Below are positions 3,603 through 16,924 of a stretch of DNA of 20,000 bases, piece after piece; the first letter of the stretch is position 1; every line of letters begins with the position of its first letter. Source of the stretch: an uncultured virus (IMG/VR IMGVR_UViG_3300043105_000062) (Duplodnaviria; Heunggongvirae; Uroviricota; Caudoviricetes); the IMG/VR virus record IMGVR_UViG_3300043105_000062, positions 54,427 through 74,426 of that record. One strand, written 5' to 3'. Both the position numbers and the translations under genes were made by a program. The notes beneath the pieces were generated by a model. That model made no database searches and was not told the DNA's origin. It was given only the letters and a program-made list of their open reading frames with translations.

Positions 3603-6600
3603 TTATGAAGTTGCGAGGTCGTTCAGCATCATGGTTCCGTCAGCGGCGGCCTCATAGAGTGCATAAGCTACCTCTCGTTTAACTCTTTCGATTATTGCGA
3701 CATTCTCGCCCTTAGTCAAGTCGATTGAATCAACATTCATCAAGTTTTGGATATTGATGTTGATTTGCTTTGGTATAGCACGGTTGGTCTGGTGAGACTT
3801 GTAATCTGAAGTGTTAGTGCCATGACCATTACCGTTGGTTCCGGTATGGTTTGTGTCATCATTGTCTCCAGTATTAAAGTTCCTGCCCTTCCAACCTTTT
3901 ACATGACCACCACCTAATGAAACAATATTGCTGGCGCCTTGCAAACTCAAAGTGTTAGGCTTCATATTGTTCATCGACCTATTAAAGGCAGCAGTCAACG
4001 GATTTGTCCTTGTGTTGAGCCAAGAGTTGTTTTGACCCAAGGAGAACACAGGCGTTGTGCCAAAGTTAAAGCCTCCGCTCAACGGTGTGACACCAATGCC
4101 ACCGGTCGCACCTACGCCACCAGTAACACCACCATCACCTGTATATGACGGAGATGGCAAATATGACCCCCATCTTGGCCAGCCAAGCGCCAAATTGCCA
4201 AGATTGAACAAATTATTAGTCAAGCCTGAGAATGTACTGTTCCAGTCTTGTCCTAACGCTCCACTCAACCCCATAATAGAGTTGCCTAAGCCAGTCATCT
4301 GGGTTTGCAGCATCACCAAATTGCCATTCTCATCAATAGCCTCGTATAGCTGAGAAAGTTCATTCCAGCGATATAGCTGACCATTCAAAGTTATTTCTTG
4401 GTTCTGAGCAACATCTATTAACTCATCAGAAGCGCCCATAAACGCTTGCGCTTGAGTGAGCAATGTCTGACAGAAGCCAATCAATGCTGCACCAGCAGGT
4501 TCAGCGGCAGCGCCTGATTTTTGAACCGCATCAATAACTGACTGCATGTTTGAAGCAGCCATCTGAGCAGCTTGTTGTGCATCGTAGTGCTTCGTTTCAC
4601 CTGTCTTTTCATCTTTAATATCAAGCCAAGTGAACGTTCCATCTTTGAAACCATAATGAGAATACCATTCTGCAATATTATTGGGGTCATAGTCTTTCAT
4701 GTTGAGACCTGGCTGATCACCAATAACAAAGCGTAAATAATTCGCCAATGTAGATGCAGTCAATGTATTAGAATCTACTTCGTTTCTAAAGCTGGTAAAC
4801 GCTTCTTGCATCGGCTCCAATATAGCTTGCAGCTGAGTCCACATATACTTACGTGTCTGCTCATCAAGAAGCATACGAGCCATATCCCAGTCAGTATCTT
4901 TAATATCGCTGAGAGAAACAAGATTATTGAGATACTGAGGGTCGTTTGAGTGTATGATTGAATTTATGTAATCGTTGAACTCAGAAGTCGAAGCACCTCT
5001 ATAGCCCATCTTAGCAACATTCATACGCATATTGGCAACTAACTTTTCATAATAGCCCCCAGGAGCCATTAATTCAGCTGTTGCAGCTGCGCTTGCCCAT
5101 GCTGCTTTTAATCCATTGGTAGTTCCATTGCCTGCTCTAATAACTTCTTCGCCATTCTCTCCAGTAACAGTATATACAGACCCGCCCTTACCATTTGACA
5201 CATAGCTGCCTTTAACCTTATCAGCAGTTGTCAAATAATAAGCACCACCAAAATTAACAAGATGCAAATTCGAGCCAAACTTGTCTTGATATATACTATT
5301 AAAACTATCAAGCTGCTTACCGCTCCACATGTCATCAGACTTATCCATCAGCTCTTTGAACACACCGGTAGAAGCCTCCATCGGGTTTTCTCCAGTCTGC
5401 AAGCCAAGTAGCTGAGCGGTTAGCTCAATACGCTTTTCAACAAGGTCGTTTATATCTTTATGCTTGGTATATTGCTGTTCCAGATACTGCATAATAGTGT
5501 TTTCTGAATTAGCAATCGTACCATTCTTGATAACATTCTGCTGAGCAAAGTCTTGCATTTCGCCATATATTTTTTTCGACTCAACCCAGCTACTACGTAA
5601 TGCTGCAAGGCCACCTAAAGCAGCGGCTACGCCAGCTACGCCCCATCCAATAGGACCGCCCATCATAGCAGCTGCACCAGCAACGCCAAACAATGCACCA
5701 GATGCGGTATCCCAACCGTTATCAGCGTCAGCCGCCTTCGACAAGCCATACATCATGGCTGCACTACCGACAAGGTTTCCAGCCATGCTGCCAACTTGGT
5801 TCAAAGCCATACGCTTGCCCATTTTGCCGCCATAACGTTTCTTATAATTAGCAAGAGCGGCAGCATTTTCTTCAGCGGACAATGCAGCATCATAGTGTGG
5901 ACGAGGTATGCTACTTACAGGAGCGCCAAATTTCCAAATAGTTTTACCGCCAATCTGGAATGAGCCTCTACGTAAAGCATCCATCGTATTACTTGAAAAT
6001 CCGGGAGCCCATGAAATAGGCCCATTGTATCTTACAACGCCTGGCGCAACTGTAGTGGCTGTTAATCCGCCCATAGCTTTTACTGCTCTTGTGCCAGCTA
6101 CAGATGCAGATCTGCCAAGCAGCTGGAATGAATTAGCAATACCTGTAATCATATAGCCAACTTTCTTGATACCCAAGAGAGCAAGCATAATACTTCTAAA
6201 TGCTGTAACACCTTTGACAACCGGCCAAATCATTAGCTGGAACTTAGCCCATGCTTTAATGACTCCACCGAACTTATCAAAGAACCATACAAACCATTTT
6301 GAAGCATCAATCATCACATGAACAAACTCCATCATGGTGTCAGACACACGTTTAAATGCAGCAGTAGCTTGGTCTGATTTCAGCCAGTTTATAGCACTAC
6401 TCATTAAGTTGCGCAGCTGCCCTTGTATTCCGCTAAAAGCTGTAACTCCCTTGTCGGTGAACACAGATGTTAATTGCGCCCACAGACCCTGAAGTGTATT
6501 CTTTTTCTCGTCAGCAAGTGAAGAAGACAGCCCTTTAGACAAGTAGTTCTCTAAATATACATCTTCCCACTTACCAACGTGACTCGACAATGCAACAGCA

Positions 6601-7913
6601 CCTGAAGCGGCTGTCTTATGGAATAGTTGATAATATGATGCAACGTCAAGATTGGCGTTATTGAGTTCCTTGAAAATTTCAAGTAATCCTTTTCTTGAAC
6701 CATCAGATTTAAATCGACTAATGCCTATTGCATCCCACGCCTTCTGCTGTTTCTTAGTCGGGTTTACGATATTGGCCATAATGGTACGTAAAGTCGTACC
6801 AGCCTGAGAACCCTTAATACCGGCATCACCTAACACACCAATAGCCGATGTAGCCTCCTCAAAAGGAACATCACCAGCCGATAACAGAGATGCTGCATAT
6901 TTGTAAGCCTCAGCAATTTCTGTCAAAGTGGTATTAGACATGGTAAACGTGTTCGTCATTACATCCGCTGCATTACGCATTTTCTGAGGTGCGATATTAT
7001 AAGCGGTCATAATATTCGTTACCAAATCGGCAGTCTGTCCTAAGTCTGTATCGCCAACAAGCGCAATATCCGCAATAGGTCTGATAGATTGCTTGATAGA
7101 CTCTACGTCAAAGCCAGCCATTGCCAAGAACTTAGCAGCATCAGCAACTTCAGTAACTTTGAATTTAGTCTCCATGCCAACATTACGAATAACGGCACTC
7201 ATATTAGCAAAGCGACCGGTGAAATCCTCATCCGTATCATGCGATTTAAGGATATTCTCAACGGTCTTCATCACGTTATCATATTCGACAGCCTGATCTA
7301 CTACATTTGAAATGAGTGTGCCCATTCCGGCAATACCATAAGCGATACCCATACCCTTCAGCATATCAATCGCCATGCCACCATTATTAGGAAGCGGCGT
7401 AGGGCCCCACAACTTATATCCAAGGTTTGTAGTATTGGCAGCGCTGGGGAATATGCTCCTTGGAGCGGTACGAGCAGTGCGTGAAGCAGCAGCTCTTGTT
7501 GATGTGCGAGAGCGAGACGGGGCGGCAGGCGCAGGTGCAACAGCAGGGGTAGCAGAACTTCCACCACCTCTTGCAGCGGCTCGCTTACTACCTTTGCCCT
7601 TTACGGTCGCACCGCCAAGATAGATACCCATTGCATTGATTCGCTCCAGCTCGCCTCTAACCATTTGTAGAGAGCGTACCAATTTACCAATCTTCTGAGT
7701 GGCAGGGCGAGTATCTACCTTAACAGTATATGGTTTATTAGCCAAGGCACCAAGTGTCTCAATAAGACCACGAGTTTTGGCTTGCAAATCTACAAGCGGT
7801 TTCGTAGCCTTATCCATTGACATCAGCGTCCGCTTAAACGCATTAATCGCGTTTGAGGCAGTCGTCGCATCAACGTTGACTATATAATTGACTTGATATG
7901 TTTGTCCAGCCAT
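3603..7913 (-). CDS. Tail tape measure protein (TP901-family core)
   Basis: 1436 aa, Ala/Gly-rich. PhageMin_Tail-like core (ETKFKVTEVADAAKFLAMAGF...LGDAGIKGSQAGTTLR), hydrophobic segments, and position after the tail chaperone. Confidence 0.95.
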   Translation of the reverse strand: MAGQTYQVNYIVNVDATTASNAINAFKRTLMSMDKATKPLVDLQAKTRGLIETLGALANKPYTVKVDTRPATQKIGKLVRSLQMVRGELERINAMGIYLGGATVKGKGSKRAAARGGGSSATPAVAPAPAAPSRSRTSTRAAASRTARTAPRSIFPSAANTTNLGYKLWGPTPLPNNGGMAIDMLKGMGIAYGIAGMGTLISNVVDQAVEYDNVMKTVENILKSHDTDEDFTGRFANMSAVIRNVGMETKFKVTEVADAAKFLAMAGFDVESIKQSIRPIADIALVGDTDLGQTADLVTNIMTAYNIAPQKMRNAADVMTNTFTMSNTTLTEIAEAYKYAASLLSAGDVPFEEATSAIGVLGDAGIKGSQAGTTLRTIMANIVNPTKKQQKAWDAIGISRFKSDGSRKGLLEIFKELNNANLDVASYYQLFHKTAASGAVALSSHVGKWEDVYLENYLSKGLSSSLADEKKNTLQGLWAQLTSVFTDKGVTAFSGIQGQLRNLMSSAINWLKSDQATAAFKRVSDTMMEFVHVMIDASKWFVWFFDKFGGVIKAWAKFQLMIWPVVKGVTAFRSIMLALLGIKKVGYMITGIANSFQLLGRSASVAGTRAVKAMGGLTATTVAPGVVRYNGPISWAPGFSSNTMDALRRGSFQIGGKTIWKFGAPVSSIPRPHYDAALSAEENAAALANYKKRYGGKMGKRMALNQVGSMAGNLVGSAAMMYGLSKAADADNGWDTASGALFGVAGAAAMMGGPIGWGVAGVAAALGGLAALRSSWVESKKIYGEMQDFAQQNVIKNGTIANSENTIMQYLEQQYTKHKDINDLVEKRIELTAQLLGLQTGENPMEASTGVFKELMDKSDDMWSGKQLDSFNSIYQDKFGSNLHLVNFGGAYYLTTADKVKGSYVSNGKGGSVYTVTGENGEEVIRAGNGTTNGLKAAWASAAATAELMAPGGYYEKLVANMRMNVAKMGYRGASTSEFNDYINSIIHSNDPQYLNNLVSLSDIKDTDWDMARMLLDEQTRKYMWTQLQAILEPMQEAFTSFRNEVDSNTLTASTLANYLRFVIGDQPGLNMKDYDPNNIAEWYSHYGFKDGTFTWLDIKDEKTGETKHYDAQQAAQMAASNMQSVIDAVQKSGAAAEPAGAALIGFCQTLLTQAQAFMGASDELIDVAQNQEITLNGQLYRWNELSQLYEAIDENGNLVMLQTQMTGLGNSIMGLSGALGQDWNSTFSGLTNNLFNLGNLALGWPRWGSYLPSPSYTGDGGVTGGVGATGGIGVTPLSGGFNFGTTPVFSLGQNNSWLNTRTNPLTAAFNRSMNNMKPNTLSLQGASNIVSLGGGHVKGWKGRNFNTGDNDDTNHTGTNGNGHGTNTSDYKSHQTNRAIPKQININIQNLMNVDSIDLTKGENVAIIERVKREVAYALYEAAADGTMMLNDLATS

Positions 7914-8022: not shown

Positions 8023-8214
8023 TTATAGACCTAAAGCACTTGCCTGTCGCGTGATGACCATTTGACTGTGCATCCACTCAGCGTCGTTAACGAGAATGGC
8101 AAAATCTTCGTCGTCGAGGTCTTCAATATTGACTCCCGGAAAGTAATGTCTTAGGAAAATTATCTTTTGACGAAAGTAATCATCCTCTTTTACTTCCCAG
8201 GCTTCGATAAATTT
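8023..8214 (-). CDS. Tail assembly chaperone 'T' extension, reached by -1 frameshift (GT fusion about 188 aa)
   Basis: The -1 frame is open from the slippery site 8214-8208 to TAA 8025-8023: IEAWEVKEDDYFRQKIIFLRHYFPGVNIEDLDDEDFAILVNDAEWMHSQMVITRQASALGL. There is no Met at its start. Confidence 0.8.
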   Translation of the reverse strand, partial: KFIEAWEVKEDDYFRQKIIFLRHYFPGVNIEDLDDEDFAILVNDAEWMHSQMVITRQASALGL

Positions 8215-8588
8215 ATGACACGGCCACCGCGCATTTTGATGATGTGCTGAAGCTGGCCCATAAGACCGAACAAGAACAATGAGTCATTGTCGATAAGCTC
8301 CTTGTCACCGTCGAGGAAACAGTCCTTAGCGAGCTGACGCATAGCCGACACTTGGTCTTTCTGTGCGAATGTCATGTACTTCGAGAAGGTGGGGAATGAA
8401 GGCTGAGTGAAGTAGCCTACGTAAACCTCTTTCTCGTCGTCACCCTCGCCGAATACGAGCAAGGGGTAAACCTTAGCCTTGGGGTTGGCTTCTTTTAGGT
8501 CGGCAACCTTCTTTTCGATGGTTGCTTGCAATTTCGGATCAAGAGCATCTTCCTGCTCTACGGTCTCAAGATTTTCCTTATCTTCCAT
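8190..8588 (-). CDS. Tail assembly chaperone (gpG-like), 132 aa
   Basis: Lies between tube and tape measure. The start is probably ATG 8588 (MEDKENLE, context CAACAAAATG) rather than 8618. It ends just after the slippery heptamer (…INLSKPGK*). Confidence 0.85.
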   Translation of the reverse strand: MEDKENLETVEQEDALDPKLQATIEKKVADLKEANPKAKVYPLLVFGEGDDEKEVYVGYFTQPSFPTFSKYMTFAQKDQVSAMRQLAKDCFLDGDKELIDNDSLFLFGLMGQLQHIIKMRGGRVINLSKPGK

Positions 8589-8620
8589 TTTGTTGAATAT
8601 ATTAAAGTTTACTTTCACTC

Positions 8621-8654: not shown

Positions 8655-8661
8655 ATATAGC

Positions 8662-8697
8662 AAAGAAAATGCGGCACCGGAATTAACCGATGCCGCA
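8662..8697 (-). terminator. Intrinsic terminator after the tail tube gene
   Basis: Minus strand TGCGGCATCGG-TTAATT-CCGGTGCCGCA followed by TTTTCTTT. Confidence 0.85.
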
Positions 8698-8728: not shown

Positions 8729-9178
8729 TTATTTAGTGCTGGGGACAATCTTGAACGGGTTGAGTTCAAACTCCTTAGTGATGTTGGTATCGTCCTGAGA
8801 TACCTCCATACCGTCCTCGTTAAAGAGGCAACCCTTCAATGTTACAGTCTCGGTTGAGAAGTCCTGAGTGTTGAACTCATTGGCGAATGAAACTACGAGG
8901 TCAAACTCGCCCAAGTTCATAAGCGAACCTTTCAGTGCGCGAAGCTGAACCTGAGTATTGTAGTCCATTGTAATCTGTGCCGTGTACTCGGTATTACCGA
9001 AACCACGGTTCACAGGTTCACCGCCCAGACCATAGTTAGACTCAACCTTCTTCTTGATGTTCCACTTGATAGCGGTAACACCCTGAAGAATTGTGGGGTT
9101 GGCATTAGCAGAACCAGTCAACGCAGGAGCGGTGAGCTGTACCATTGCCCATGAGTATGCGACGTTATTGATAATCAT
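8729..9178 (-). CDS. Tail tube protein
   Basis: 149 aa directly after the sheath gene. INNVAYSW, NYGLGGEPVNRGFGN and ETVTLKGCLF are typical of contractile-tail tube proteins. Confidence 0.85.
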   Translation of the reverse strand: MIINNVAYSWAMVQLTAPALTGSANANPTILQGVTAIKWNIKKKVESNYGLGGEPVNRGFGNTEYTAQITMDYNTQVQLRALKGSLMNLGEFDLVVSFANEFNTQDFSTETVTLKGCLFNEDGMEVSQDDTNITKEFELNPFKIVPSTK

Positions 9179-12142: not shown

Positions 12143-12676
12143 TTAAAATTTGTCGAACTGCACGTCACCCAACTTTTCCTTGATAGCTGCTTTTACCTGA
12201 GCGTCAACATCTTTCAATGTCTCCTCAACAGTAGCCACGTTAGCGGGATCAGATGCGATTGTAGCCGTGATTACCTCACGGGCCTGGATTGATGCAAGAG
12301 TTGCTTTTACAGTAGCGAAGTCGGCGTTAGCCATCGTCACCCAAGCGTCTTTTGCAGAAGCCTCAATTTTACCTGCCTTGATAGCGTCTTCAATGACTGA
12401 AGCGATCTCGGCCTCGCGAGCAGCTTGCTCAGCGTCCTTGTACGCCTTGAGAGCGTCCTTGACTTCACTAAGTTCACTGTTGACGTTTGCGAGTTCTGCT
12501 TCCTTGCCTTCGAGTTTAATTTTGACAGCGGTCAACTCACTCTGAGTTTCCTTGAGGGTTGCCTCTGTCTTCATCAACTCAGCAATACGAGCTTCTATCG
12601 CTGCGGCCTGAGTGTCCTTCGCGAGTCCAAGTTGTGCTGAAATGGCGTCGAAATTTACATTTTCGTTAGTTTCCAT
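12143..12676 (-). CDS. Putative internally initiated scaffold protein (177 aa, in frame with the protease)
   Basis: ATG 12676 (M245, METNENVNF) has the A-rich context CAAAATAAAATG, sits at the domain boundary, and has a late-promoter-like motif about 40 nt upstream. Confidence 0.6.
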   Translation of the reverse strand: METNENVNFDAISAQLGLAKDTQAAAIEARIAELMKTEATLKETQSELTAVKIKLEGKEAELANVNSELSEVKDALKAYKDAEQAAREAEIASVIEDAIKAGKIEASAKDAWVTMANADFATVKATLASIQAREVITATIASDPANVATVEETLKDVDAQVKAAIKEKLGDVQFDKF

Positions 12677-13408
12677 TTTATTTTGATCTTGGATTTGTGA
12701 ATTGTCTTTTCGATTACGAATAGCGCTGATGTCTTCAAGAAGTTTATTTTCATCCACTTCGGCAGATACAGCCGACATGATGTCTCTAATTGAAGCGGTA
12801 TCTACGATACCTTCCATCTCGCATTTTACTTTGTCACGAACCTTCTTTGAAGTTTTGATAACGTTCTCAGCCGGGAGGAAACCAGCCTTAACCGCATCAG
12901 ACGCGCTGAAGAATGTACCGTCAGCTTCACCTTCGCCATTCATAATGGCAGCTACTTTTTCTTTGGATAGGCCAAAGCGTTTGGTATAGATGGTTTCAAG
13001 CTGAGAGCGGAAAGCCTCCACGGTCTGCTTGAGCGACGGGTCGTTATCAATGTTCTTAGCGTTGAAGGGGTTATGAATCATCAGCAACGAATAATCGTGC
13101 ATGAACAGATTGTCACCAGCTGCCCAAATGATGCTTGCCATCGAAGCAGCAATACCCTCAACTACGCAATCAACTTCAATAGGACAAGAGCGTATGATTG
13201 AGAATGTGCTCATTCCGTAAAGAACTGAACCGCCCTCCGAGTTAATCATCACGATAATTTTTGATGGCTTGATATAATCTTGCAGCCACAAAAATTCATC
13301 ATTGAAGCATTGGACGCTACATTCATCTACGGAAGAGAAAAAGCGTATAATAGCCGGCTTGTCTGTTTCAGCCCTACCAACTACATATTTCAGATTTTCT
13401 ACGTCCAT
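12143..13408 (-). CDS. ClpP-type (S14/S49) prohead protease with C-terminal scaffold domain
   Basis: INSEGGSV, GIAASMAS (catalytic Ser) and LMIHNP (His) motifs. The C-terminal part from M245 is coiled-coil-like and Ala/Glu/Lys-rich. Confidence 0.9.
   Translation of the reverse strand: MDVENLKYVVGRAETDKPAIIRFFSSVDECSVQCFNDEFLWLQDYIKPSKIIVMINSEGGSVLYGMSTFSIIRSCPIEVDCVVEGIAASMASIIWAAGDNLFMHDYSLLMIHNPFNAKNIDNDPSLKQTVEAFRSQLETIYTKRFGLSKEKVAAIMNGEGEADGTFFSASDAVKAGFLPAENVIKTSKKVRDKVKCEMEGIVDTASIRDIMSAVSAEVDENKLLEDISAIRNRKDNSQIQDQNKMETNENVNFDAISAQLGLAKDTQAAAIEARIAELMKTEATLKETQSELTAVKIKLEGKEAELANVNSELSEVKDALKAYKDAEQAAREAEIASVIEDAIKAGKIEASAKDAWVTMANADFATVKATLASIQAREVITATIASDPANVATVEETLKDVDAQVKAAIKEKLGDVQFDKF
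12716..12747 (-). promoter_or_regulatory. Degenerate late-promoter copy inside the protease gene
   Basis: Minus strand ATAAACT-N15-CGCTATTCGT (12725-12716), an 8/10 match to CTCTATTCTT. Confidence 0.45.
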
Positions 13409-14180: not shown

Positions 14181-14713
14181 CGTCTAACTACGCCTGGGAA
14201 AGTTCTAAAAATCATTCTTTCAAGCTCACGTAACTTATCGTTCATTACAGATGAGTCTTTCTTTTCAGTTGGCATGAACTGGCGTTGCGGCATGTTAGCC
14301 ACTCGTCCGGTTCGTATGGATGAGTCGTCAGAGTTATGTACTGCGGCAAAGCAGAAACCTCTGTGACTATATGTTCCGCTAAATGCTGATGGGTCGGTAA
14401 AAACTTTGACGCGGCCTCTTGTGCGATTATACGTTTCAGTCTCATACACAATAGAGTTGCGCAACGAATGTGACTCAATCAAGCCACCGACGGTATAACC
14501 ACCTTTGTTACGCTTAGGACGATGCTTCCAAACTACGCTGCCAGAAGTATTGAAGCGTTTCATATCAAACGACTTCTGGAATATCTCCACAGCAGAGCGA
14601 CCAACGGATACCTGAAAGTTCCAGATATTCAATTCAAACTGGTGAGGAAGCAACTCCCATGATGTAATCCATTGTTGAGGCGTTATTGGAATACCTCTAT
14701 TGATTCTCGCCAT
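14177..14713 (-). CDS. Virion morphogenesis protein (Mu gpG/P2 gpS-like)
   Basis: 178 aa, basic. FQKSF...WK, LIESHSLRNSI, FAAVHN and MPQRQFM motifs match this family. Confidence 0.75.
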   Translation of the reverse strand: MARINRGIPITPQQWITSWELLPHQFELNIWNFQVSVGRSAVEIFQKSFDMKRFNTSGSVVWKHRPKRNKGGYTVGGLIESHSLRNSIVYETETYNRTRGRVKVFTDPSAFSGTYSHRGFCFAAVHNSDDSSIRTGRVANMPQRQFMPTEKKDSSVMNDKLRELERMIFRTFPGVVRR

Positions 14714-15572
14714 AGTATTTCGCTCTAATTCGTTTAGCTATAGCATTGAGACGACCAACATGTCGCTCATCAACTTGGAAGTATGGATGTTCATCTGAGA
14801 AAATTCGACCACCCAGTGCGACGCTCTCCTTAAATGTGCGGTTGAACCAATCAGGCATCTCAGGAGTAGCCATTGCCTGAACCGAGCTAAGGTTTGACTT
14901 TCCGTCTATTGAAGCAGTATCCTCAACCAAATAGCAACGGCACTGATATTCAATAGGAGGTATCAACCAAGCCGGGAAACGAGATTTCGGTGCCGTGAAG
15001 CCCTCATACTGTAAGTGCCAAGGGCGCACACGCTCATCGCCTTGTGTCATGTACATCAGAACGGTATCATCCCTGACAGCTGCAAGAAAAGCAGCAACAA
15101 TCATTGAATACTCTGCATCCTGATTTTCTGTACGCATATATTGGTCGTTGAAGCGCTTGAACACAGGCAGGAAAAACAGCTTCCAATCGTCATCATCCAT
15201 ATCTTCAGACTCCTCATCACTAAGCTCATCTTCCAGCTCAGCCATATCGTCAGCCATCTGATATTCAGCGACTACTGAGAAATCAACAAGGTTATCAACA
15301 GCCGCCATAACAATATTTCGTTGGGCAATCTGTTCACTGTCAAGTCCTTCAGCCTCACGGATAAGCTTTATTGCATCTTCAAACGTAATGCCAAAGCCAT
15401 CCAGTGCTCGTCTAATCATAATGTCAGCACGAGCTTCCATCAAGTCTTCCAGCGTATCCCATTCGTTCTCCTGATTAGCAACACTAATGACAAAATCATG
15501 GAACAGAGCCAGCAATATTGCCACCTCTTTTTCATGCCGGTCCTCACTTGTGTCTGGATGTCGTAATGCCAT
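14697..15572 (-). CDS. Minor head protein (Mu gpF / SPP1 gp7-like); possibly expressed mainly as a frameshift fusion to portal
   Basis: YMTQGDERVRPWH...PPIEYQCRC motif. ATG at 15572 (GTG at 15575), but the frame is open upstream through the portal slippery site at 15623-15617. Confidence 0.85.
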   Translation of the reverse strand: MALRHPDTSEDRHEKEVAILLALFHDFVISVANQENEWDTLEDLMEARADIMIRRALDGFGITFEDAIKLIREAEGLDSEQIAQRNIVMAAVDNLVDFSVVAEYQMADDMAELEDELSDEESEDMDDDDWKLFFLPVFKRFNDQYMRTENQDAEYSMIVAAFLAAVRDDTVLMYMTQGDERVRPWHLQYEGFTAPKSRFPAWLIPPIEYQCRCYLVEDTASIDGKSNLSSVQAMATPEMPDWFNRTFKESVALGGRIFSDEHPYFQVDERHVGRLNAIAKRIRAKYYGENQ

Positions 15573-15578
15573 CACATT

Positions 15579-15623
15579 GGAGAGTAGGGTTGGACCTATT
15601 GCCCCCTCTCCCGAAGAAAATTT
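15579..15623 (-). other. Candidate programmed -1 ribosomal frameshift signal (portal to gpF-like frame)
   Basis: A_AAT_TTT in the portal frame (15623-15617), 5-nt spacer CTTCG, then the hairpin GGAGAG-GGGG / CCCT-A-CTCTCC (15611-15579). The -1 frame is the gpF-like frame, with no stop in between. Confidence 0.7.
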
Positions 15624-16924
15624 TTGGTATTACGAGCGTGCCCGTAACGTCTGAAATATTCCTCATCAGTTAGATGGCGAGTCGTATTATTGCTATAACC
15701 GCCGCCTCCACCTCCGGACGGAGCACCACCTGCACCTTCAGCCATAACATTCAGCTGACGTTTAACTTTCACGCCGAACTCCTGCTCAATAGTTTCGGGG
15801 TCCATTTCCCAAGAAGCGGTTAAGTTCTGGAACAAACGTATGCGGTCTTCATCGGACATCTCAATACGTTTAGCGTATTTGAACTCAAGGCCATCCGGTA
15901 AATATCCAAGACGGACAAGGCGAGGCACAATGCTTTCGTTCATCACCAGTTCAATGTAATCACGGTACACCTCGATACGGTCACGGAAAATGTTTTCATG
16001 CGCACGAGTAGCACCGACATACGACTGGGTAGCGCCGGCGATTGACTCAGAGCCAAGAATAAGGTTTGATACATCCTTATCAACGATAGCAATAAGCCCG
16101 GTGAACACTTGCTCTGAGTTCGACATCGTGAAAGTTTTAATATCCACCTCGTCATTCAGACCGGTTACGATAACTTTGTTCTGGGCAGCACTCGCTATAT
16201 CATTTGCCATTCGCTTACGGTCAATGGTGTTCTCAGACTCAGTTTTGCCGTGAATAATAGGCTGACCATAGGTGTGAGAAAAGTTGACGTAATTGGCAAA
16301 TGTAAACTTCTTGGCTAATATTAGCGGAGCAACAGCAGAGAACAAACCCAAGTCACCGTTATTCACAAGAACATAATGGTCGGCATACTTCGGGTCATCG
16401 AAATTCCACTGAGGCATCCATATTCCTTGTCGCTGAACAATACGACGTTGATCCGCAAGAATATTACGGCGCTCAACAAAGTTCACCTTCAGTCCATTAT
16501 GTTCCAGAGTTGGGTCAACCAAGAACTCAAGACCGGTGTATCCATACAGCTTCGACTCGGCAATACCATAGATAATCTTCAGAAACTCGGTGTTCTGGAT
16601 TTTCTTGGTCGCCGGAATGTCCTTAGAATATTTGCCTTTCTCGTTTTGCTTAGCCATCATAAATCGTTCTCCCACAATTTGAGAGAACAGGGTCTCCAGT
16701 ACGCCACGTAGATGAGCGTCTTGCTGCACACAGGCATCATAAATGTCTATGAGGCGGCTACGGTCATCCAGCACCGTTCCGTTCTGGAGGTGCCTATAGG
16801 CAGACTGAAAGCGGCATCGGCGCTCAATCTCCCGTACATATTCCTGTACGCTCTTTTTGCTGGTCATAAAGGTACTTTCCAGCAACTGAGAGATTTCTTT
16901 ATCTGATAATTCTGCGTTAGCCAT
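15596..16924 (-). CDS. Portal protein (DUF935 / Mu gp29-like)
   Basis: 442 aa. IYDACVQQDAHLRGVL, ESKLYGYTGLEF, FSHTYGQPIIHGK and VSNLILG...SYVGATRAHE motifs. First gene of the head module. Confidence 0.85.
   Translation of the reverse strand: MANAELSDKEISQLLESTFMTSKKSVQEYVREIERRCRFQSAYRHLQNGTVLDDRSRLIDIYDACVQQDAHLRGVLETLFSQIVGERFMMAKQNEKGKYSKDIPATKKIQNTEFLKIIYGIAESKLYGYTGLEFLVDPTLEHNGLKVNFVERRNILADQRRIVQRQGIWMPQWNFDDPKYADHYVLVNNGDLGLFSAVAPLILAKKFTFANYVNFSHTYGQPIIHGKTESENTIDRKRMANDIASAAQNKVIVTGLNDEVDIKTFTMSNSEQVFTGLIAIVDKDVSNLILGSESIAGATQSYVGATRAHENIFRDRIEVYRDYIELVMNESIVPRLVRLGYLPDGLEFKYAKRIEMSDEDRIRLFQNLTASWEMDPETIEQEFGVKVKRQLNVMAEGAGGAPSGGGGGGYSNNTTRHLTDEEYFRRYGHARNTKNFLRERGQ

Follow-up and report, generated by a model that had tools for sequence, protein, structure and literature searches.

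The final 20 kb of the 74,426-base record IMGVR_UViG_3300043105_000062 of an uncultured virus carry, on the minus strand, a Mu-type portal gene followed by an open reading frame (ORF) for a MuF/gp7-like minor head protein, which lies in the -1 frame relative to the portal. This whole stretch of 20,000 nucleotides (nt) is referred to as the window, and all coordinates are based on it. The locus raises the question of whether the MuF-like protein is initiated at a codon of its own or is reached by ribosomes that have slipped out of the portal frame. A -1 programmed frameshift at the 3′ end of the portal gene was found to be very probable from the comparison of related sequences. Among 125 distinct junctions downstream of related portal genes, 103 combined the -1 frame, an open overlap of the two frames, and an in-phase AAATTTT heptamer; each of these 103 also folded into a hairpin behind the heptamer, and most of them lacked a start codon at the beginning of the MuF frame. 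The features of the window on which the argument rests are listed here, with the kind of evidence given in brackets.

16924..15596, minus strand: portal gene (zero frame), 442 amino acids (aa) (Pfam Portal_Mu PF06074; PHROG 113, portal)
15736-15698, minus strand: Gly-rich stretch GAGGAPSGGGGGG, portal residues 397-409 (translation)
15632-15630, minus strand: -1-frame stop codon TAA, which bounds the overlap upstream (-1 frame translation)
15623-15617, minus strand: slippery heptamer A_AAT_TTT, encoding Asn435-Phe436 as the zero-frame codons AAT and TTT (sequence and frames)
15616-15612, minus strand: spacer CTTCG, 5 nt (RNAfold)
15611-15602, 15601-15590, and 15589-15579, minus strand: 5′ arm, loop, and 3′ arm of the hairpin (RNAfold)
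15617-15573, minus strand: fifteen trans-frame codons (SSGEGAIGPTLLSNV), reached only via the shift (-1 frame translation)
14697..15572, minus strand: ORF of the MuF/gp7-like minor head protein, 291 aa from ATG 15572 (-1 frame relative to the portal)
15543-15539, minus strand: candidate second-stem partner GGACC for the loop segment GGUCC at 15596-15592 (35 nt past the stem)

A canonical -1 frameshift signal consists of an X_XXY_YYZ heptamer and a structure about 5–9 nt downstream. The portal gene of the window ends with ACC AAA AAT TTT CTT CGG GAG AGG GGG CAA TAG, in which the stop codon TAG occupies 15598-15596, and the -1 frame is open from 15629, across this stop, into the MuF-like ORF (KFSSGEGAIGPTLLSNVMALR...), for which GTG 15575 and ATG 15572 are candidate starts. 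The hairpin comprises 10 base pairs (bp), with one bulged A and a 12-nt loop that contains the portal TAG (pairs of 15611-15602 with 15589-15586 and 15584-15579). An earlier note, made from the letters of this DNA alone, had described the heptamer and its phase, the coordinates, the -1 frame, the hairpin, the 5-nt spacer, and the Gly-rich stretch, and all of these were correct. The note had also proposed that frameshifting yields a ~742-aa portal-gpF fusion beside the 442-aa portal. The length was confirmed (436 + 15 + 291 = 742 aa), and the proposal itself gained strong support from the comparative data given below. The junction peptide of the fusion is predicted to be NFSSGEGAIGPTLLSNV, and the junction-spanning target peptide in the window would be NFSSGEGAIGPTLLSN.

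Taken alone, the signal is unremarkable in the window. AAATTTT occurs seven times, compared with 6.7 expected occurrences, and the 71-nt fold of the junction (-16.9 kcal/mol, z score of -0.90) was equaled in stability by 36 of 200 shuffles. The -1 frame must stay open for just ~18 codons, and such overlaps are common between adjacent genes. The significance of the signal derives wholly from the relatives.

Three scans of viral contigs, one scan of genomes, and two GenBank stretches yielded 276 loci, many of which were fetched twice. Eleven loci that were cut off or had no portal C-terminus were dropped, and the remaining 265 loci gave 125 distinct 150-nt junctions, with portal identities to the window of between 50% and 100%. 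Where a host is named for a genome locus, it nearly always belongs to the Bacteroidales (Prevotella, Palleniella, Muribaculaceae, Bacteroides, Phocaeicola, Alistipes, Parabacteroides, Dysgonomonas, Butyricimonas, and Segatella), and several loci are prophages, as they lie inside large chromosomal contigs. Bacteroides phage BS-TP1 (host, Bacteroides salyersiae BG8) was the sole cultured relative found; it shows 74% nucleotide identity and carries the same signal.

The MuF gene was in the -1 frame and open over the portal stop in all 63 first-round loci that held both genes. In the 103 signal-bearing junctions, this frame relation was kept despite indels and the use of all three portal stop codons (TAG in 44, TAA in 43, and TGA in 16), and the distance from the heptamer to the stop was 12, 15, 18, or 24 nt. 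The seven columns of the heptamer were the sole invariant ones in the 103-junction alignment; in an alignment of 38 junctions, one G was invariant in addition. Asn-Phe at the site was encoded by AAT TTT in 103 of 103 junctions, and elsewhere in the same portal ORFs the dipeptide was encoded by AATTTT 47 times, AATTTC 42 times, AACTTC 42 times, and AACTTT 40 times. The codon before the site was of nine kinds, specifying nine residues, and always ended in A, compared with a background of 22% for A at third positions. This pattern indicates that the heptamer is constrained as nucleotides rather than as amino acids. In a FastTree phylogeny of the portals (117 rows, trimmed of their last 25 residues, unrooted), signal-bearing rows were placed on both sides of every deep split, and the rows without the signal formed a few nested groups.

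The beginning of the MuF frame was then considered with respect to start codons. The first ATG in this frame was located at least 34 codons past the site in 81 of the 103 junctions, 21–33 codons past it in nine, and at most 20 codons past it in 13. No ATG, GTG, or TTG was present for at least 33 codons in 17 of the first 38 junctions. The stretch that initiation at a later codon would skip is conserved as protein (e.g., LSNVvALRqPDDsKDRHEeEVAiLLpLFhDF), and its column entropy at codon positions 1, 2, and 3 (1.34, 1.01, and 1.78, respectively) shows a coding pattern. Gene callers and the BS-TP1 record shorten MuF or leave a 113-nt gap because they seek the absent start codon: in BS-TP1, the annotated MuF coding sequence begins at an internal ATG, which lies 113 nt past the portal stop, and the intervening bases are unannotated. 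In most relatives, the downstream ORF would depend on the shift for want of an initiation codon, and the window itself has ATG 15572. With this early ATG (codon 16-17), the window belongs to a minority, and the codon aligns with the start of relatives that are initiated independently. Most close relatives have Val or Ile (GTA, ATA, GTT) at window positions 15570-15575, where the ATG and GTG lie, and the start codon of the window may be a recent substitution rather than an ancestral initiation site.

Natural controls were provided by the other 22 of the 125 junctions, which comprised ten with a MuF gene that has its own ATG, seven with a different gene, two with a variant slippery site, and three from broken or doubtful contigs of metagenome-assembled genomes. 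In the ten own-ATG junctions, the ATG is located ~7 codons past the Asn-Phe position, and the MuF frame is +1, 0, or joined by an ATGA overlap. The site reads AAT TTC, AAC TTC, or AAC TTT after C, T, or G, or the dipeptide is absent. Eight of the ten kept Asn-Phe and were foldable; their free energies were 0 to -3.4 kcal/mol, with z scores of ~+0.2 to +1.4 and one of -0.7. Comparison of these controls with the 103 junctions leads to the conclusion that the heptamer, the hairpin, the fixed -1 frame, and the missing start codon co-occur and are lost jointly.

The remaining exceptions differ in kind. The two junctions with a variant site (L184 and L239) keep the hairpin, the -1 frame, and the absence of a start, with the non-canonical sites G_AAT_TTT (L184) and TCT_TTT_C (L239), in which just the A-site U_UUU tetramer is retained; the first ATG of L184 is 127 codons on. 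In the seven junctions with a different gene (L224, L233, L238, L240, L246, L247, and L250), the portal has no Asn-Phe tail, and the next gene is a non-MuF gene with its own ATG (MRITLEQFCEQW... or similar).

When the 103 junctions were folded singly, a hairpin was obtained for every one, with a stem of 6–13 bp (10–12 bp in 86 junctions and at least 9 bp in 96). A spacer of 5 nt separated the heptamer from the hairpin in 70 of the 103 junctions, and one of 4 nt did so in 31. The mean free energy of the hairpin was -17.9 kcal/mol and the mean z score was -3.6, compared with -3.0 kcal/mol and +0.3 in the signal-less junctions. The two arms differ between clades in a compensating manner (GGAGAGGAAG/CTTCTCTCTCC, GGAAGAGGAA/TTCCTCTTCC, GGACGAAGCG/CCCTTCGTCC, and GGGGAATGG/CCATTCCC). 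In the MAFFT alignment of 38 junctions, which was not fitted to the structure, 87.4% of the cells could pair, compared with 81.4% after shuffling, and none of 500 shuffles reached the observed pairing or covariation score; changes on both sides were seen in eight of the ten stem pairs. In the ungapped alignment of the 103 junctions, 75.2% of the cells could pair, compared with 68.0% after shuffling, and both-side changes were counted in 139 cells, compared with 62.6 in the shuffled sets (0 of 500 shuffles reached this number), involving nine of the ten pairs. RNAalifold recovered just 8 pairs from the MAFFT alignment, with a covariation term of -0.57, since the inner stem is displaced by bulges; folds of individual sequences and explicit pair counts were used in its place.

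Many relatives show complementarity between the hairpin loop and a segment located 16–21 nt past the stem. The sequences are specific to clades and form 5–8 bp (GGCAAC/GTTGCC, GGCAG/CTGCC, GGTAG/CTACC, GAGAC/GTCTC, and CCGGCA/TGCCGG), and synonymous Leu codons downstream vary in step with the loop. When pairing was scored in a fixed 15-nt window 13–28 nt past stem 1, a score of at least 13 was reached by 36 of the 103 junctions, which represented 23 distinct pairings, compared with 6.5% of 3,090 controls with loops swapped in from unrelated junctions and with 6–16% in other scoring windows. On this basis, about a third of the family may have a pseudoknot with a long stem 1 as the stimulator. 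The loci with a loop–downstream pairing include L015, L021, L029, L040, L048, L053, L063, L163, L173, and L221. A second group (L039, L060, L071-L077, L101-L115, and L199) shows a 6–8 bp match, AGATAGC/GCTATCT, 39–54 nt downstream, with no double compensatory changes. The junction of our own 20-kb stretch scored 0 at 13–28 nt past the stem; the GGUCC/GGACC pairing listed above is kept in 11 distinct junctions of its clade, without covariation, and may be due to chance.

The identities of the two proteins were examined by profile and structure searches. The portal protein matched Portal_Mu PF06074 with an E value of 2.4e-43 (149.2 bits, cut-off of 23.9) over profile positions 2-336 of 336. The MuF-like protein of the window matched Phage_Mu_F PF04233 with an E value of 2.5e-4 and 22.2 bits, which is below the cut-off of 29.6. 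Its assignment to MuF is based on the 19 of 21 aligned relatives that matched PF04233 at E values up to 0.01 (best, 1.4e-10) and on fused Portal_Mu-MuF proteins; in the proteins that a search with the family profile returned, PF04233 scores 35–69 bits. The position of the gene directly after the portal gene also fits the Phage_Mu_F family. An AlphaFold2 model of the MuF-like protein had a predicted local distance difference test (pLDDT) score of 91.2. With this model, Foldseek found no match in the PDB at E values up to 0.001, and VIA-align against 48,161 chains returned helical-bundle look-alikes only (Z up to 7.6), with no solved relative among them; the MuF-like profile gave a single chance-level match (E value of 0.26) among PDB sequences. 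The AlphaFold2 model of the portal, built from a 14-sequence alignment, had a mean pLDDT of 59.8, which was too poor for a fold search. Residues 382-416 in this model had no secondary structure and a pLDDT below 50, which is weak evidence for disorder, and the Gly-rich stretch GAGGAPSGGGGGG is likely to be a flexible linker ahead of the shift site.

Proteins in which the two domains are joined in a single frame were also sought. In the window, the TAG at 15598-15596 intervenes and MuF is in the -1 frame; a joined product would arise there only via a frameshift. Two close relatives with a single ORF (P0002 and P0003; 753 and 763 aa), found when longer relatives of the MuF-like protein were sought, consist of a portal, an acidic linker that differs between them, and MuF, and they have no Asn-Phe site. 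A search of IMG/VR with P0002 for in-frame fusions found none, and all 55 distinct junctions then known had the frameshift arrangement. A profile search of 1.84 billion representative sequences returned 3,324 relatives at E values up to 0.001, of which the best 150 were inspected. Among these 150, there were 22 clusters of at least 600 aa, and all 22, together with one 539-aa fragment, contained Portal_Mu followed by Phage_Mu_F in one chain. These proteins indicate that a portal–MuF fusion is a viable natural protein. Five of these fusions (P0077, P0078, P0090, P0119, and P0145) end in a third domain that is toxin-like, a PBECR2 nuclease in three proteins and CdiA_C in the other two, so that the portal itself would carry a polymorphic-toxin module in them.

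The earlier note had named four things to look for among relatives, and each was found: the in-phase heptamer (103 of 103 junctions), both-side changes in the hairpin (above 500 of 500 shuffles), a constant -1 frame, and natural in-frame fusions (the two close relatives and the 22 clusters among the best 150).

From the anatomy of the junction, its nucleotide conservation, the missing starts, and the natural fusions, which were observed here, we infer the slippage, its frequency, and the role of the fusion as follows. Most ribosomes would pass AAU-UUU without leaving the zero frame and terminate after six more codons, at the TAG located in the hairpin loop, which would release the 442-aa portal. 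Some ribosomes would pause at the hairpin, which is encountered at the entry channel 5 nt downstream, and the P-site tRNA-Asn and the A-site tRNA-Phe would slip one base back, from A_AAU_UUU to AAA_UUU. Reading would then continue with UCU UCG GGA ... through the 15 linker codons and the whole MuF ORF, giving the 742-aa portal–MuF fusion. The C-terminus of the portal points into the head in solved portals, and long subunits in the ring would thus put MuF domains inside the procapsid, with the number of MuF copies per ring set by the efficiency of frameshifting. Extended to the family, the following reading is probable, although less firmly so than the shift itself: in a large clade of Bacteroidales phages and prophages, MuF would lack a start codon and, as with gag-pol, arise solely by trans-frame extension of the portal C-terminus, by means of A_AAU_UUU and a hairpin (with a pseudoknot in about a third of the lineages), and the efficiency would set the share of MuF-bearing subunits in the twelve-membered portal ring. 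This would be the first portal-gene recoding described. Heptamers of the form H_HH.U_UU.Y rank among the most efficient in E. coli, given a stimulator (PMC4066793, in part).

Several observations weigh against this interpretation. The 50 nt past the heptamer in the window folded with -14.5 kcal/mol and a z score of -0.84, which is no better than shuffles, and the hairpin of the window is among the weakest in the family. The relatives share ancestry, so that the counts are not independent events, and the tree needs just five state changes. In the covariation analysis of the 103-junction alignment, a 3′ arm slid by -1 scored almost as high as the arm in register (0.393 vs. 0.396), because the arms are purine/pyrimidine repeats and the bulges differ; the folds of individual sequences and the natural controls were therefore weighted above the covariation score. 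ATG 15572 might allow MuF to be made without shifting as well in the lineage of the window; among the relatives, 13 of 103 have an early ATG, and GTG or TTG codons at which initiation could in principle occur are found in many others. Finally, full fusions are common elsewhere, and the essentiality of a low set ratio is thus just one possibility.

The competing explanation that survives best accepts the shift and assigns it to expression. According to this explanation, slippage is the means, and in most relatives the sole one, by which MuF is translated in a fixed proportion to the portal, and MuF is later released, perhaps through the action of the ClpP-like prohead protease, whose gene is 2 kb downstream, to act like the free gp7 of SPP1. 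We consider this possible, although less likely than not. The missing MuF start codon of most relatives, the gene of the head maturation protease at 12143-13408, and the Gly-rich, probably disordered linker ahead of the site would all suit such a release, and gp7 of SPP1 is a separate portal-binding protein (PMC6316719, in part). However, no cleavage site was identified, and single-ORF fusions are widespread, with linkers that are not conserved. The observations fit a cleaved as well as an uncleaved product.

It is improbable that the window uses no recoding, with MuF made only from ATG 15572 (or GTG 15575) and with the heptamer and the hairpin serving mRNA stability or translational coupling or persisting as relics. 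The alignment of the window ATG with the start of independently initiated relatives is consistent with this explanation, as are a window hairpin that does not exceed shuffles and a heptamer at chance frequency. The relatives argue otherwise: few of them have the early ATG (13 of 103, and 81 have none for at least 34 codons), the heptamer is invariant at synonymous sites, and the heptamer, the hairpin, and the frame disappear jointly in the clades where MuF is initiated independently. The context of ATG 15572 as a start is also poor. The 25 nt upstream contain 6 A and 13 G+C, and the hairpin ends 6 nt upstream of the ATG. The earlier note had remarked that this ATG lacks the A-rich context of the other structural starts. 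This held in comparison with 10 of 13 other putative starts examined, which have 9–14 A in the upstream 25 nt, but ATG 14180 (6 A, 13 G+C), GTG 8618 (5 A), and GTG 2553 (12 G+C) are similar to it, and the context is thus weak evidence.

Termination and reinitiation, in which ribosomes at the portal stop would restart on a nearby non-AUG codon and give free MuF, is still less probable. The portal stop is always in or beside the hairpin loop, 12–24 nt past the heptamer, and ATGA or GTGA overlaps are present in some relatives, as such a mechanism would have it. However, it leaves the invariant in-phase A_AAT_TTT and the fixed 4–5 nt spacing of the stem unexplained, ATG, GTG, and TTG are all absent over at least 33 codons in 17 of 38 junctions, and the open stretch of the -1 frame invariably begins ahead of the heptamer.

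Slippage of RNA polymerase or DNA indel heterogeneity in the A3T4-6 run, which is extended to T6 in some relatives, is highly unlikely to join the ORFs, as runs of 3–6 identical bases are generally short for transcriptional slippage, the phasing of the heptamer and a structure 4–5 nt downstream are features of ribosomal frameshifting, and the two-frame layout recurs in more than 100 independent assemblies. Stop-codon reassignment or readthrough was ruled out, since the ORFs are in different frames and the portal stops include TAG, TAA, and TGA, and an assembly artefact was ruled out by the concurrence of the more than 100 independent assemblies.

The arrangement proposed here, a frameshift from portal to MuF, was compared with known systems. 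The tail assembly chaperones of lambda and most long-tailed phages are reportedly made by a -1 frameshift of the G/GT type (Xu, Hendrix and Duda, 2004). The two cases are alike in a heptamer near the end of an upstream structural ORF, a -1 ORF without its own start (here, in most relatives), and two products, predicted here, that share an N-terminus in a ratio set by slippage. They differ in that the gene pair here encodes the portal and a MuF head protein, a whole conserved virion protein of 290 aa would form the extension, and a strongly conserved hairpin (with a possible pseudoknot in about a third of the relatives) stands beside the heptamer. Portal–MuF fusions encoded by a single gene are known from Microbacterium phages of subclusters EA3, EA5, and EA8 and cluster EB (PMC7302621, in part). 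Those fusions likewise run from an N-terminal Portal_Mu domain to a C-terminal Phage_Mu_F domain, but they are encoded by one ORF, with MuF on every subunit and no recoding, whereas two frames are present here and a short and a long product are expected. In SPP1, a few copies of the MuF-family protein gp7 are carried to the interior of the procapsid via the portal and support the start of infection (PMC6316719, in part). The MuF-family gene directly follows the portal gene in SPP1 as well, but gp6 and gp7 are separate and associate non-covalently, whereas the link proposed here would be covalent and made by frameshift.

Eukaryotic RNA viruses offer a further parallel. Rous sarcoma virus uses the heptamer A_AAU_UUA, and the pseudoknot of infectious bronchitis virus combines stems of 11 bp (stem 1) and 6 bp (stem 2) with a long connecting loop. 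As in gag-pol and coronavirus 1a/1b, the downstream ORF has no initiation of its own (here, in most relatives) and would be made solely as a trans-frame fusion, the heptamer is near-identical, and a long stem 1 is combined with a potential 5–8 bp loop–downstream pairing in about a third of the relatives. However, in those viruses the downstream products are enzymes, and there is no homology. Temperate phages reportedly also carry MuF–toxin fusions (Jamet, 2017). Bxa of Bacteroides is a MuF–toxin fusion (PMC11699363, in part). Such fusions resemble the present case in that a MuF module carries a fused partner into the capsid and in their occurrence in Bacteroidales prophages, but MuF is the N-terminal carrier of the toxin there, whereas here MuF would be the C-terminal cargo of the portal, and the MuF of the window has no toxin domain.

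A frameshift from a portal gene to MuF was not found in the published literature, supplements not covered. The word "portal" does not occur in the PRFect paper or in the first 300,000 characters of the Atkins 2016 recoding review, and "frameshift" does not occur in the BS-TP1 paper. The textbook mechanism of -1 frameshifting and the fused portal–MuF protein are both known already, and a shift that joins the portal to MuF, which we did not find in print, would be new.

The surroundings of the junction are those of the structural module of a myovirus-type phage, here a gut phage of Bacteroidales. Among sequencing runs searched for this stretch, one DNA run contained 0.05 of the sampled words, and no RNA run was listed. 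The MuF-like ORF is followed by two small ORFs, the ClpP-like prohead protease (12143-13408), and a putative capsid gene, and the genes for the tail sheath, tube, chaperone, and tape measure are located further downstream of the capsid gene. A probable tail assembly chaperone frameshift was noticed in this module on the minus strand: ORF 8618..8190 ends with ...ATA AAT TTA TCG AAG CCT GGG AAG TAA, which contains an in-phase A_AAT_TTA at 8214-8208, and a -1 ORF at 8283..8023 runs toward the tape measure gene (3603-7913). A_AAT_TTA is kept in the same phase in the tail chaperone junction of BS-TP1 (L277, 716-722), which suggests that this type of site is in use by these phages. In the BS-TP1 record PQ571274 (L067 and L277), gp37, which is located upstream of the tail chaperone, is labelled "portal protein"; it corresponds to the tail tube ORF 8729-9178 of the window by its position beside the chaperone gene, as judged from the 3′ end, unaligned. 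Right after the tail tube gene, a terminator-like element (8661-8696, minus strand) consists of a G+C-rich stem of 10 bp (GCGGCAUCGG / CCGGUGCCGC), capped by a loop of 6 nt and followed by AUUUUCUUU.

The annotation of an abundant group of gut phages and prophages should carry the joined portal–MuF product. With more than 100 natural variants of one signal, including hairpin, candidate pseudoknot, and lost forms, the family offers a seldom available basis for comparing frameshift signals in Bacteroidota, where translation is not the same as in E. coli, and the cultured BS-TP1 makes the prediction directly testable. If true, the shift would be a second conserved frameshift in phage morphogenesis, beside that of the tail chaperone. 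It would be a simple route to a portal ring in which plain subunits and subunits with MuF are combined in a set proportion, and it bears on how MuF/gp7 proteins, and the toxins carried on some of them, are counted into the head.

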